Shown here: positions 14,710 to 62,716 of the stretch, piece after piece | Numbering within the stretch: the first letter of the stretch is position 1 | How the letters are laid out: every line of letters starts with the position of its first letter | NCBI GenBank assembly: GCA_964016885.1 | Contig: OZ024747.1 | Location: forward strand, 56,482,001 to 56,546,000 | Length of the DNA stretch: 64,000 nt | Source: Eledone cirrhosa | Taxonomy: Eukaryota | Reading direction: 5' to 3' | Translations under genes and position numbers: made by a program | Notes under the pieces: generated by a model | What the model was told of the DNA's origin: nothing | What the model saw: the letters and a program-made list of their open reading frames with translations, nothing else | Database searches by the model: none

Positions 14710-14772
14710 TACTTTATTATATATATTTCAAAGGTACTGTGTTGTTTCAGTACCTTTTCATCAGACAAAATA
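14710..14772 (-). ncRNA. Minimal type I hammerhead ribozyme, family H copy 1
   Basis: UAUUUUGU CUGAUGA AAAGGUACUG-AAACAACA-CAGUACCUUU GAAAU AUAU AUA AUAAAGUA: 10-bp stem II, 8-bp stem I, intact core. Confidence 0.85.
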
Positions 14773-15002
14773 TATGATTTAATATATGACATACCACTAC
14801 GTTTTGATTATTCAATTCCAGTATTGGCAGTATATATAGGTGAGTTATTCCGGGTTGAATCGGAGGTAACCACAGTAAGAAAGGTAGCAGAGTATAAAAG
14901 TTTTAATATAGATAGATTCTACAGGACTAGAACTGTTTAATTATTTTGAAATCATCCTGATGATTTCTAAAGTATGAAACAGTTATATATATGTGTGTGT
15001 GT

Positions 15003-15333
15003 GGAGGCACATGGCTTAGTGGTTAGAGCATTGGCCTTGCAATCGAAAGGTTGTGAGTTCAATTCTCAGACCGGGTGATATGTTGTTTCCTTGAGCAAGA
15101 CACTTTATTTCACATTGCTCCAGTTTACTCAGCTGTAGAAATGAGATGATAGGGACTGGGGTCCCTATCATTCCACTGTAAAGAGGTCGTGGAGGTGCCA
15201 CAGCAAAAAAGCACCCAGCACTCACTGTAAATGAGGTTGGTGTTAGGAAGGGCATCCAGCTGTAGAAATCGAGCCAGAATCAGTTCCTTGCAAGCAGGGA
15301 AAAGCGGATGTAAAATGATGAAAATGATGATGA
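15003..15333 (+). mobile_element. Young tRNA-CORE SINE with RTE-derived 3' end
   Basis: A box TGGCTTAGTGG, B box GAGTTCAATTC, CORE-like CCTTGAGCAAGACACTTTATTTCACATTGCTCCAGTTTACTCAGCTG, RTE-type tail GCAAGCAGGGAAAAGCGG..TAAAA(TGA)n. Confidence 0.9.
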
Positions 15334-15364
15334 TATATATATATACACATACACATCATGATTT

Positions 15365-15745
15365 TCTTTTTCTTTCCCAATCATCATCTGATCCTTCTAA
15401 ACATTCACACTCTGTTCTAGAAATGTCCCATTCACCTTGCACCCTTGTGGCAAATAAATGAAATCATTTGATTATTATTGTGGAAAACTGGGAGAGGGCA
15501 CTTGCCCTGGTGGTCAGGGTCACCATGGCTTTTTTTAATGAGCTTTCTCCACAATGGCCCTCAGAATTCTCCCCCCCCCCCCCCGTCCCTATTGGGGAAT
15601 TTTTCCTTGTTCCTTTTTTGTTACATCCTCTGTTTCTTGTTTTTTTTTACACGCAGAAAAACCCTTTTGTACCGTCCTGTATTGTCCTGTACTGTCCTTA
15701 ATGTCTACTTTGTGTAAACCCTTGTGGTTAATAAAGAAATCATTA
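15365..15745 (+). mobile_element. Two tandem Tx1 3'-UTR fragments at ATT-rich sites
   Basis: Ends CCCTTGTGGCAAATAAATGAAATC (~15442-15465) and CCCTTGTGGTTAATAAAGAAATCATTATT (~15719-15747). The second matches the 3' UTR of 2740-3060 (CCCTGGTGGTCAGGGT, CCTATTGGGGAATTTTT). Confidence 0.8.
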
Positions 15746-16480
15746 TTAATATTAGTATAAAGGAATTATTATTATTATTATTATTATTATTATTACTATG
15801 AAGAAAAAAAGTAGAAACAAAAAAAAAAAGTAGAAACAATTATTACTATGAAGAAAACATCAGAACTTACACTTGACATTTAAGAAAGTTGAAATACAGC
15901 CGGCCATTTACGTTTCAATAAGACATTTGAAAAGTTGATAAACGATAGCGTTCACTCCTTTACTATTTGCATAATATTCTTATCTAAATCTGTTGGATTA
16001 TTATTTACTAAGATACATGAGATTATATAAACTTCTAGCCATGATTTTAATCTGGTCTTCTGGGAGGAAATGGATTCTTCGAAATAATCCTTCCTACATT
16101 CTGAAGATGGGATAAATATTTCAACAAAGACTTGAACTTTTAACACTCAAACATGATGGACACTGATTTTTAAGTTCTAATTCTGCCAAAGATAAGCTGC
16201 TTCACCTTTGGGGCACTTGGGTGTGTGTGTGTGTCTATACATATGTCTATCTATACATATTTGTATACAATATATATGTTTCATTTCAGAACATATATAC
16301 TAGATATAAGTATCTATCTACCATATATTTATCTTGCAATCTCTCTCTCTCTCTCTCTCTCTCTCTCTCTCTCTCTCTCTCTCTCTCTCTCTCTCTCTCT
16401 CTCTCTCTCTCTCTCTCTCTCTCTCTCTCTCTCTCTCTCTCTCTCCTAGTATCTTTCTTTCTATCTATCTAAATATCTAT

Positions 16481-16545
16481 CCCTCCCCCCGTTGTCGCGT
16501 CTTATAATGTCCCATTTTGTACGCCCCTATGGCAAATAAAGAAAT
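16481..16545 (+). mobile_element. Very short Tx1 3' end within (CTAT)n
   Basis: GCCCCTATGGCAAATAAAGAAAT followed by CTATCTATCT and preceded by TCTATCTATC. Confidence 0.55.
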
Positions 16546-59224: not shown

Positions 59225-59570
59225 GGAGGCCACATGGCTTAGTGGTTAGAACATTGGCCTTGCAATTGAAAGGTTGTTGAGTTCAATTCTCAGACCGAGT
59301 GATGTGTTTGTTTTCCTTGAGCAAGACACTTTATTTCACATTGCTCCAGTTTACTCAGCTGTAGAAATTAGATGATAGGGACTAGGGTCCATATCATTCC
59401 ACTGCAAAGTGGTCATGGAGGTGCCACGGCAAAAAAGCACCCAGCACTCACTGTAAATGAGGTTGGTGTTAGGAAGGGCATCCAGCTGTAGAAATCAAGC
59501 CAGAATCAGTTCCTGTCCCACCCTTGCAAGCAGGGAAAAAGTGGACGTAAAATGATGATGATGATGATGA
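59225..59570 (+). mobile_element. Young tRNA-CORE SINE
   Basis: Family match, with (TA)n on both sides. Confidence 0.92.
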
Positions 59571-59934
59571 TATACATATATATATATATATATATATATA
59601 TACGTCCAGAAATAGCCGTCGAAATGGCTTCAGCTCTGCTGTTGGGGGTCAAACATTTTCTTTATAATATATCATCATCATCATCATCATCATATATATA
59701 TATATATATATATCTAAGCCATGCCAGCGTGGAAGATGGACGTAATCGAGGATGATGATGATGATATACACATTTATATATACATACATGTATGTCTCAA
59801 TTTCTCTGTCCTCTTCTCCCTCTCTGCCTCTCTCTCTCTACCCATGACTCTCTGTGTTTCTCACTCTATTTCTATTTATCTGTATCTATTTCCCCATCTG
59901 TATCTATCTGTTCCAGTGTCTCTCTTTCTCCCTC

Positions 59935-60620
59935 TCTCTATCTCTGCTTATTTGTCTCTATCTTCCACTCTCTCTCTCTCTGTCTCTCTCTCTCCCTCTC
60001 TATCTCTGCTTATTTGTCTATATCTTCCACTCTGTCTCTCTCTCTCTCTTGTCTCTATCTTCCACTCTTTCTGTCTCTCTCTCTCTGTCTCTCTCTCTCT
60101 GTCTCTCTATCTCTGCTTATTTGTCTCTATCTTCCACTCTTGCTCTCTCTCTCTCTGTCTCTCTCTCTCTCCCTCTCTCTATCTCTGCTTATTTGTCTCT
60201 ATCTTCCACTCTTTCTCTCTCTCTCTCTCTCTCTCTCCCTCTCTAATCTCTGCTTATTTGTCTCTATCTTCCACTCTTTCTCTCTCTCCCCTCTCTCTCT
60301 CCCTCTCTATCTCTGCTTATTTGTCTCAATCTTCCACTCTCTCTCTCTCTCTCTGTCTTTCTCTCTCTCCCTCTCTCTATCTCTGCTTATTTGTCTCTAT
60401 CTTCCACTCTTTCTCTCTCTCTCTCTCTCTCTCTCCCTCTCTATCTCTGCTTATTTGTCTCTATCTTCCACTCTTTCTCTCTCTCCCCCTCTCTCTCTCC
60501 CTCTCTATCTCTGCTTATTTGTCTCAATCTTCCACTCTCTCTCTCTCTCTCTCTGTCTTTCTCTCTCTCTCCCTCTCTCTATCACTGCTTATTTGTCTCT
60601 ATCTTCCACTCTGTCTCTCT
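59935..60620. repeat. Minisatellite: ~33-bp constant core plus variable (CT)n, about 10-11 units
   Basis: Core TATCTCTGCTTATTTGTCTCTATCTTCCACTCT recurs every ~60-75 bp. Confidence 0.9.
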
Positions 60621-62089
60621 CTGTTTTCCACTCTCCCACTCTATGTACCTCTCTGTCTGTCTACCTCAAATTTATCTATCTCTTTTTAACTTTATCTTTG
60701 TGGTTCAGTCATTCTATGTACTCCCCCCCCCTCCCACTCTCCCTATCTCTCTCTTTTCTCTCTCTCTCTCTCTCTCTCTCTCTCTCTCTCTCTCTCTCTC
60801 TGTCATTTCATCAGATAATTCCTCCCCACAAGGGACAGTCCATAAATGCATATTGCATTAGTTTAATGACCATGGTCAGTTTCAGACTTTCAGACAAACA
60901 GAAAAATGAAGACAAACATAAACACAAAAAAGAAAAAGAAAAATATTTACCCATGATTCAATAATAAAAAAAAAAAGATAAAATAAAATAAAAATATAAT
61001 AAAATAAAAATATAATAAAATAAAAATATAATAAAATAAAAAATACTAACCAGTGTCTGGGATTGAACACTGATTAGTAAATTACCAATATGTAAGCAAT
61101 AAATCCACTTTTAAACTATCACGTAGATTAGCAAGCCATAATTCCTGGATTGAATCTGTGATTTCAACGGCAGTTATTTAGCAAAATTGCAGTCAGATGG
61201 GAATGGACACTGGTCATATGGAATATACTGTATATATACACACACACACACACATATATATATATATATATATATACACATATATAATATATATATACAT
61301 ATATACACATATATAATATATTTATACATGTAATATATATTATATGCATATTATATGTATATATATTTATATGTATATATATATATCATCATCATCATCA
61401 TCATCGTTTAACGTCCATATTCCACGCTTGCATGGGTTTGGACGGGAGTTTTCCCACTTGAGGCAAGAGTGGTTGTCTTGCTCGCATAGGACTGTCTGGC
61501 AGGTTTTCTACGGCTGGATGCCCTTCCTAACACCAACCACATTTACAGTGTGGACTGGGAGGTTTTTACCGTGTTATATATATATATAAAATTATAAAAT
61601 AAGAGGAAATAATAGACACAGATATATACCTATCTTTTATATATATATATATATATATATACATATACATATGTGTGTGTGTATATATATATATATCTAT
61701 ATATATATATATCTATGATATATCTCATATGAAATAATACAGCCAATTACACACAATACAATATAGTTAGCACCCCAAACGTTTAATTAGGAATATACTC
61801 AGGTATTTCCTAATGATTGTTGAGTGAGTTGGAATTTGGCCGGAGTATCGCTATTAGCTTTCTCCGATTATGTATTTATATATATATATATAAAGAGAGA
61901 GAGAGCATTAGGTAGGGATGGTGTAAAGAAGGGTAAGATTCTATGAAGTGGTACATGATATATTAAGCAAGTGGTTAAGCCATGCCACAAATGTTACGTA
62001 TTCTATTGCTAACCAATCACAACCTAAATATATTTAGTGGTAGAAGGAAGGAAAACATAAAGAAAGTTTTTTTTCTATTCTCTAATATA

Positions 62090-62287
62090 TCATCATCATC
62101 AGCAGCAGCAGCACGTCTACTTTTCCATTCTTGCATTGGTTAGACAGGTCTATCACAACACGGCATCTCTCCACTGTCGCGTTCCTTCATCATTTCCTCT
62201 GTCAGTCTTAGCGATTTGAGTTCTGCTCTCAGAACCTTTGGCCAGGTCTTTCTTGGTTGTCCTCTATTGCAGCTTCCCCCCACCATA
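62090..62287 (-). mobile_element. RTE 3' fragment
   Basis: Encodes RGQPRKTWPKVLRAELKSLRLTEEMMKER. Confidence 0.8.
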
Positions 62288-62477
62288 CATATACATATAT
62301 ATATATATATATATATATATATATATATATATATATATATATATATATATAACGAAGGAGTTGTGGTAAACAACCAGATGGACCATAACGCACCAGAGTA
62401 TTCAATAGGGTAGTAGAAACGCTTGAGCTCTGCCGTCGGGGGTCTTACTTTTTCCTATATATATATATATATATATA

Positions 62478-62716
62478 AGCAAAGGGATATTTAATTTGTT
62501 GGTAATTCAACAAATATATATATTTATAACTGATTCGAAGCACTATCCAGGTAAAACTTGAACTGTTAAGATCTCCTTCCTGGATATGTCAATATTTATA
62601 AAACAAACTTTGTATTTTATCTGATGAAAGCGTACCAAAGTGTTGGTACCCTTGAAATATATATAATAGAATAAATATGGTTTTATAAACATAGTTTCCA
62701 TTTATTAATATCATTG
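62478..62716 (+). mobile_element. Family H non-coding hammerhead element between (TA)n
   Basis: Colinear with the reverse complement of 45730-45997. Confidence 0.82.
62613..62673 (+). ncRNA. Minimal hammerhead, family H copy 5
   Basis: UAUUUUAU CUGAUGA AAGCGUACCAA-AGUG-UUGGUACCCUU GAAAU AUAU AUA AUAGAAUA. Confidence 0.85.

Follow-up and report, generated by a model that had tools for sequence, protein, structure and literature searches.

Short hammerhead-bearing repeats between TA runs of Eledone cirrhosa are almost certainly cut-off 3′ ends of a Hydra-clade Penelope-like element

Background

Penelope-like elements (PLEs) of the Hydra clade, as characterised in the sections of Craig et al. 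on which we draw (PMC8557442), encode reverse transcriptase (RT) and, C-terminal to it, a GIY-YIG endonuclease (EN) within one open reading frame (ORF) that has RWK-like, DKT, CxCx5C, CxxC and CxH motifs; they use (TA)n targets and carry a hammerhead ribozyme near the 3′ end, a one-ended tail and an inverted, 5′-truncated arm. All of these characters are shared by the family considered here, which we studied through four loci with five hammerhead copies in a 64,000-nucleotide stretch of Eledone cirrhosa DNA (assembly GCA_964016885.1, contig OZ024747.1, positions 56,482,001 to 56,546,000, forward strand; hereafter the window). In a preliminary description made from the sequence alone, these copies had been taken for an independent, retrozyme-like family. 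Earlier publications already list insertion into (TA)n, the hammerhead, the tail and the inverted arm as Hydra or PLE traits, and the formation of the inverted and tandem ends of PLEs is named as an open question in the same paper (PMC8557442).

Three other systems are close enough to be compared, in the parts of the papers cited. In the Anolis Poseidon PLE PAc (PMC11167929), the tail is delimited by two internal sites, downstream of the hammerhead, at which RT starts; both strands of an AT-rich target are nicked and extended, and the RNA template is uncleaved. The E. cirrhosa copies suggest the same arrangement, read here from sequence, except that in PAc the start sites fall within the ORF and lack homology to the target, whereas those proposed here precede the ATG, ~90 nt apart, and are each followed by AT-rich bases. 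Penelope of D. virilis (PMC2377424), from a different clade, has an internal TATA-less promoter with a downstream element in its pseudo-long terminal repeat (pLTR), to which the putative promoter described below would correspond, together with partial tandems and an intron 46 nt after the start. Finally, animal non-LTR retrozymes (PMC7229834; bioRxiv 10.64898/2026.07.22.740005) are likewise short, non-coding, furnished with a type I hammerhead and related to PLE pLTRs, but they are head-to-tail tandems that give circles cut at the ribozyme, whereas the copies described here are single or head-to-head and do not end at the cut site.

Results

An autonomous element with the same terminal repeat

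Loci fetched from the E. cirrhosa assembly are labelled in the style L184, and s1 to s4 are the four subfamilies represented in the window; +1 is the base at a shared 5′ boundary, and site 1 and site 2 are two positions at which 3′ ends fall. Our queries consisted of the hammerhead and the part downstream of it only, and the matches retrieved share long upstream sequence, which in one case led into the end of a GIY-YIG endonuclease. Of 30 loci that bear the endonuclease, 21 reach the same hammerhead end, ~1.1-1.2 kb downstream and within the flank. We also fetched 20 regions of 9 kb, each around a long frame, and three of them (L173, L178 and L184) have the order pLTR-ORF-3′ untranslated region (UTR)-pLTR; such complete units measure ~3.7-4.4 kb, with a 3′ UTR of 1.1-1.9 kb and the ATG ~50-60 nt past the tail. 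The autonomous PLE with a shared terminal repeat, which the preliminary description proposed to look for, is present, and it is so for all four window subfamilies: L106, L109 and L110 are ORF-linked relatives of s1 (the 62613 type), L171, L177 and L187 those of s2 (the 50382 type), the long s3 copies (14710 type; L126, L147) extend to the EN end, and the s4 direct arm at 45729..45906 is 96.8-97.3% identical to the pLTRs of the ORF-bearing copies L184 and L172. A genome DNA search with the 45769 copy as query gave no match, and s4 was reached instead through the RT search.

The single ORF encodes RT followed by a C-terminal GIY-YIG domain. RWR (RWK-like) and DKT motifs are found in L172, L174 and L178, and, read by eye, there is a CxCx5C linker with CxxC and CxH around conserved E and N and no CCHH motif. 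The hammerhead lies in the pLTR, sense to the ORF, and pLTR, tail and inverted arm are all present. We assign the element to the Hydra clade because its protein carries the RWR, DKT, CxCx5C, CxxC and CxH signature given by Craig et al. (PMC8557442); the Neptune clade was an initial candidate and was dropped once the Hydra characters had been compared. Pfam gave no significant match on three ORF pieces; among the matches listed, most of 120 homologues carry PF26215, and the named homologues of the protein are from a coral, a crinoid and a bryozoan. The family departs from the clade as tabulated by Craig et al. (PMC8557442) in its length (under 3 kb in the clade, a tendency and not a diagnostic trait), in its tail (~90 nt against 30-40), in a longer stem II with a retained C·C mismatch, in a copy number in the tens of thousands and in a hammerhead unlike that of the octopus family Hydra-1_oBim. 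Exact matches to the core pattern number 42,954 in the 3.0-Gb genome, against none for the control, or ~1 per 70 kb, and the RT search had 56,254 candidates at first look; scores were computed for 113 of them.

From these sequence comparisons, the repeats are almost certainly cut-off 3′ ends of a Hydra-clade PLE and not a separate family.

Anatomy of the window copies

The window elements, of 240-410 bp, comprise the following parts.

14567..14831, minus strand: single arm assigned as a Hydra-clade PLE 3′ end, s3, from +1 at 14831 through the hammerhead to the tail end, with TA runs on both sides.
14710..14772, minus strand: type I hammerhead whose core is intact; C3 is at 14764, and the cut is predicted after 14718.
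45729..45906, minus strand: direct arm, s4, which starts at ~+8 and stops at the first 3′ site; its hammerhead is at 45769-45833, with the cut predicted after 45777.
45906..45997, plus strand: inverted arm of the same insertion as 45729..45906, a ~90-nt tail that ends on (TA)n.
50172..50358, minus strand: first arm, s2, from +1 (50358) to the first 3′ site; hammerhead 50216-50280, core mutated (GGAA).
50359..50568, plus strand: second arm, head-to-head with 50172..50358, from ~+52 through the hammerhead at 50382-50446 to the tail end; predicted cut after 50438.
62478..62544, minus strand: inverted arm, the 3′ part of the tail, which meets the direct arm at a 4-nt microhomology.
62542..62716, plus strand: direct arm, s1, which starts at +1 (62542) and stops at the first 3′ site; its hammerhead is at 62613-62673, with the cut predicted after 62665.

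The positions and strands previously given for the five hammerheads (14710-, 45769-, 50216-, 50382+, 62613+) and for the predicted cut sites after 50438 and 62665 are correct. Three loci had been placed between (TA)n; in fact all four sit between TA runs. Three of the four are two-armed inverted structures, and in the arm at 50359..50568 a short deletion separates the first 3′ site from the tail. Leaving 50382+ aside, the 5′ junction falls exactly at +1 in three of four hammerhead arms (14831, 50358, 62542) and at +8 in the fourth. That these copies are non-coding holds for the window, because tblastn with the family RT/EN protein found no match anywhere in it.

Short copies are interleaved with long ones

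The short/long label changes 22 times on a tree of 92 copies, 54 of them short and 38 long, and supported branches force at least eight of these changes. Short-only groups have two or three members, no sizeable short-only clade was seen among these copies, and short copies nearly identical to ORF-linked ones occur (L053 and L106). Hammerhead pairs within 600 bp of each other, counted in 120 loci, are head-to-head in 28 cases, tail-to-tail in three and on the same strand in one; no head-to-tail tandem array was seen in these loci. At L184:5640-5923, one contig (run X1) has the tail end connected via ATAT to a following +1, so that the short unit is, as it rarely is, in head-to-tail tandem.

Because the tandem arrays that define retrozymes were not seen in the 120 loci, short and long copies intermix instead of forming distinct lineages, and an ORF partner exists, we regard the copies as PLE ends rather than as retrozymes, and the claim of an independent retrozyme-like family does not stand. 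According to the preliminary description, the copies would be truncated Penelope ends if every long copy joined a PLE ORF; this largely holds, every window subfamily having long copies so joined, although not all long copies could be traced as far as an ORF within their 1.5-kb flanks.

Two 3′ sites and two-armed insertions

Among 102 copies in three sets, whose extraction needed the segment after the cut, 63 have their 3′ end at site 1, 30 at site 2, 6 at the locus edge and 3 elsewhere. Site 1 lies ~46-60 nt and site 2 ~125-152 nt past the cut site, ~90 nt from each other, and TA directly follows 82 of the 93 copies that end at either, as expected of (TA)n insertion in the Hydra clade; in the element itself, both sites are followed by AT-rich bases. 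A second, inverted arm was found in 29 of 57 loci that had been retrieved without the tail in the query, and 26 of these 29 two-armed insertions have one site on each arm (p=1.5e-5). Where both arms of a head-to-head pair carry a hammerhead, they belong to the same subfamily in 23 of 24 cases, and the two arms differ on average at 3.8 positions against 5.4 to other copies (p=0.028). The 240-bp form (240-280 bp) consists of an inverted piece of tail and a direct arm, with junctions that vary from insertion to insertion (27 strings in the 28 parsed of 30 loci). At L040, L123 and L141, arms of different subfamilies stand back to back or adjacent, which could reflect two RNAs used in one event or re-insertion into a TA flank.

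A fixed 5′ boundary and a candidate internal promoter

The 5′ ends of 132 arms in 87 loci gather at a boundary 65-91 nt upstream of the hammerhead core: 46 fall within -2..+7 and 81 within -2..+27, against only 6 within -32..-3, with 19 further up and 26 further down. Genome-wide, 20-mers just inside +1 are more frequent than those just outside (867 vs 299; 359 vs 230), and an outside partner accompanies 36 of the first 100 inside 20-mer matches. At +1 there is an A, preceded by C, in surroundings that resemble the initiator consensus. Of 98 copies, 79 have purine-G at +28/+29, even though between 65 and 91 nt separate +1 from the core; the downstream promoter element (DPE) consensus fits at most 7 of the 98 at any offset other than +28. 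On this sequence evidence, the shared +1 probably marks an internal promoter of the element's own, a reading that we favour with some reserve.

The boundary is not the ribozyme cut. Among 123 unselected copies, those other than the search match, the hammerhead is complete in 98; 11 begin within stem II or the core and 5 beyond the cut, and 9 were flagged near the cut site, ~5 of which are true junctions by eye. Since 5′ ends do not accumulate at the cut in this set, the templates look uncleaved. No second ribozyme (HDV-like, twister or hairpin) at +1 could be fitted by eye to the consensus structures as generally known. A candidate intron donor at +39 to +46, a place similar to that of the Penelope intron, lacks GT in at least 27 of 92 copies, its variable base being explained by hairpin pairing; no conserved acceptor for it was seen in these copies, and no splicing-like joint appears among the joints listed from contigs of four sequencing runs of unrecorded kind on one full-length 5′ end. 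On that same 5′ end, contig depth (runs X1, X2) drops ~13-14-fold across +1 and ~30-40-fold past the tail, a difference that we do not count as evidence, summed contig depth not being copy number, subfamily divergence confounding the drop and run X5 contributing no contig.

An octamer-like motif (so named from general knowledge), ATTTGCAT, lies ~45-75 nt upstream of +1 and is kept in the 3′ UTR of s1 and s2 despite diverged flanks (L041, L049, L059, L060, L069, L075, L077, L082, L091-L120); it was not seen in the printed s3 and s4 copies.

The hammerhead and its base pairing

A type I hammerhead descriptor matches four times in the window and never in 100 shuffles, and Rfam at the gathering threshold has no match there. 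The copies have the features of the minimal, PLE-type, type I hammerhead: CUGANGA and GAAA cores, a UH cut site, stems I and II and a short palindromic stem III. The core is intact in four of the five window copies, that at 50216- carrying GGAA for GAAA, and core and cut site are retained in 200 of 227 copies from fetched loci, a set for which a near-intact core was already required at extraction.

The preliminary description had reported compensatory changes in stem II, and this is borne out: 6 of 9 pairs are altered on both sides, with 24 distinct stem II types. The 21 two-sided cells were reached in none of 500 shuffles and the pair count in 19 of 500, statistics that ignore phylogeny, and 96% of the cells can pair against 38-55% in slid controls (24 types, relatedness not corrected for). 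The changes in stem I keep pairing as described, almost only as exchanges between Watson-Crick and G·U on the sense strand, and the 227 copies agree. The perfect stem II quoted for 14710- turns out to be a private variant, position 4 being G-C in one of 38 copies of s3 and a C·C mismatch in 210 of the 227. The claim of a minimal type I hammerhead whose pairing is kept across several master lineages is thus supported by the 227-copy alignment and the covariation of the 24 types, and the hammerheads, as judged from sequence, are real: conserved and covarying.

Other particulars stood in part. A stem III and cut site made of (UA)4 occurs in four window copies and in 168 of the 227, 45769- having UAUGUAUA instead, as do 38 of the 227; the A-U pair closing stem II is found in 135 and a G·U in 83, so that the G10.1-C11.1 pair with an extra preceding base, a trait of minimal type I hammerheads, is lacking. 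Of the features called unusual, a cut after A is found in 11 of the 25 families in the hammerhead table of Craig et al., and closure of stem II by A-U or U-A also appears there, for example in Hydra-1_oBim and the Penelope_HM families; the A before UH, giving the triplet AUA, and the all-AU palindromic stem III are absent from that table, all 25 listed families having G before UH (PMC8557442). As for the roles proposed for stem III, self-pairing is predicted to be possible: the 8-nt palindrome allows no monomer hairpin and pairs weakly with itself (-3.2 and -2.2 kcal/mol, computed), and a dimer route for cleavage by PLE hammerheads has been published (PMC4209133, PMC6765202). Pairing with (TA)n targets is unsupported, because the insertion junctions lie at the two 3′ sites, ~46-60 and ~125-152 nt past the cut site, and not at stem III.

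Neighbouring repeats

A second, unrelated short repeat with TA runs on both sides is present at 14845-14990, where it adjoins the s3 element, and at 9160-9310, and also in L026, L044, L048 and L131. It has head-to-head arms and a hammerhead-like core in the usual Hydra layout (CUGAUGAU, a short stem II, UGAAAC and a stem III of 3-4 bp), and is probably the end of another Hydra-type family. Another short, (TA)n-bounded repeat, at 62353-62456, often stands beside hammerhead elements (L004, L047, L057, L063, L083, L143). This suggests that TA targets are common to several families, which insert into one another's flanks. Near hammerhead loci we also observed a ~320-bp repeat resembling a short interspersed nuclear element (SINE), with a tRNA-like head, at 15010-15300, 45375-45700 and 49830-50150. 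At 4805-6019 and 10500-11713, the window has a tandem array of a 51-bp unit, with 24 copies that are 93% alike, and a long array rich in CAA/ACC that could encode Thr-rich repeats.

Discussion

The ORF link, the two 3′ sites ~90 nt apart, the sharp 5′ boundary and the presence of one 3′ site per arm are observations at the level of sequence. As an account of them, we consider it highly probable that the elements are 5′-truncated 3′ ends (pLTRs) of a Hydra-clade PLE in (TA)n, likely produced by RT priming at two fixed sites, often with run-off on an RNA that likely started in the pLTR. Several points weigh against one or another part of this account. The fetched samples are the best-scoring matches rather than random ones and include a few duplicates (L070/L071, L124/L133), and the 98-copy set stands for only ~5-8 lineages. 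Within that set, the full DPE consensus at +28 fits just 32 copies. The s3 outside 20-mer occurs in a sister lineage as well, blurring its inside/outside ratio; +1 is at the base of a 44-51-nt hairpin (z -2.8 to +0.2, 11 representatives), and other causes of the boundary must be allowed because the hairpin starts there; and the 5′ pLTRs of the full-length L173, L178 and L184 run hundreds of bases upstream past +1, so that the templates of these copies would have begun further upstream or been circular or tandem. Short and long labels are slightly clustered on the tree (3 of 500 shuffles as low), in part since the long set came from another query. Several arm pairs are as unlike as random copies, including that at 50172-50568 (11 differences), and L040 joins arms of two subfamilies; because of these divergent pairs and of L040, two RNAs may sometimes be used.

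Which alternatives remain depends on the part of the account concerned. That the copies form an independent non-autonomous family, spread by self-cleaved circular RNA with a (UA)n stem III pairing with (TA)n targets, would suit their size of 240-410 bp, the lack of an ORF in the window copies, the conserved, covarying hammerhead and the one contig joined head-to-tail; with ORF-linked partners for all four subfamilies, one same-strand pair in 120 loci, unit ends that differ from the cut site and junctions that vary between insertions, we hold it to be very improbable. Less far-fetched, and still improbable, is that part of the short population descends from short masters, solo pLTRs with an internal promoter being transcribed and copied in trans by the PLE protein in the manner of SINEs. 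Neither the +28 motif nor either priming site is lost in copies that start at +1, the tree has its short-only groups of two or three, and non-autonomous elements derived from pLTRs are described in the cited parts of the literature (PMC8557442; bioRxiv 10.64898/2026.07.22.740005), but the absence of a sizeable short-only clade from the 92-copy tree, the near identity of L053 with the ORF-linked L106 and an inverted junction that differs from copy to copy (point changes being counted among the 27 strings) speak against it.

For the two arms, fold-back of a single cDNA, with the second end made by an endonuclease cut at an AT-rich pLTR site instead of a second priming, appears rather unlikely. 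It would account for private variants often shared by both arms (L056, L069, L146) and for the AT-rich bases in the element after both 3′ sites, and the section concerned of Craig et al. attributes the tail to EN-mediated resolution (PMC8557442); it fits poorly with the common form made of inverted tail and direct arm, in which the arms have no overlap, with the cross-subfamily and divergent pairs, and with the Anolis work, in which both strands were nicked and extended by the protein in vitro and synthesis began at each of the two sites (PMC11167929). At the 5′ end, the same PLE origin could be combined with a +1 at which the 5′ hairpin causes processing or arrest on a long, tandem or circular RNA, be it through an RT stop, a stalled exonuclease or an unrecognised cleavage. 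Most subfamilies have a hairpin that begins at +1 to +3, full-length copies have 5′ pLTRs that continue through +1 and circular templates have been proposed for PLEs (PMC4209133), and we give this possibility a minority but real weight. Against it, the +28/+29 purine-G keeps its distance to +1 and not to the 3′ arm of the hairpin or to the hammerhead, and some lineages fold poorly (L158, L166). An RT is moreover expected to stop before a hairpin and not after it.

Under the account that we prefer, an initiator and DPE-type promoter would start the RNA at +1, the GIY-YIG domain would nick both strands of a TA run, and each nicked strand would serve as primer at one or the other of the two sites, after both of which the RNA has a short stretch rich in A and U. 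The template would be uncleaved RNA, from whose 5′ end the cDNAs would run off; the cDNA primed at the tail would stall in the tail, giving the 240-280-bp form, or read on, and the two cDNAs would be joined head-to-head, often at microhomologies. The hammerhead would owe its selection to the autonomous lineages and would need protein help, or dimerisation by way of the palindromic stem III, in order to cut, and the short copies would be mostly by-products. Whether both primings used one and the same RNA is, judging from the arms, about an even question. The fullest version, that the copies record how PLE inverted ends are built, with one internally started RNA primed twice on nicked TA strands and cDNAs running off as in retroviral strong-stop synthesis, so that tens of thousands of promoter-plus-ribozyme cassettes are scattered with no separate non-autonomous master, we put forward tentatively, at somewhat less than even chances.

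Our literature searches, which covered listings with most subscription journals outside their scope, found no prior description of a fixed 5′ boundary or of twin priming in PLEs, and nothing on point for octopus hammerheads. If it cleaves, a hammerhead with an AU-only palindromic stem III and an AUA triplet would widen the known range of PLE hammerheads. While the copies do not represent a new retrozyme family, a very abundant Hydra-clade PLE amounts to a useful natural experiment on PLE end formation: its short insertions, in their thousands, share a fixed 5′ boundary, a choice of two 3′ sites and a rule of one site per arm.

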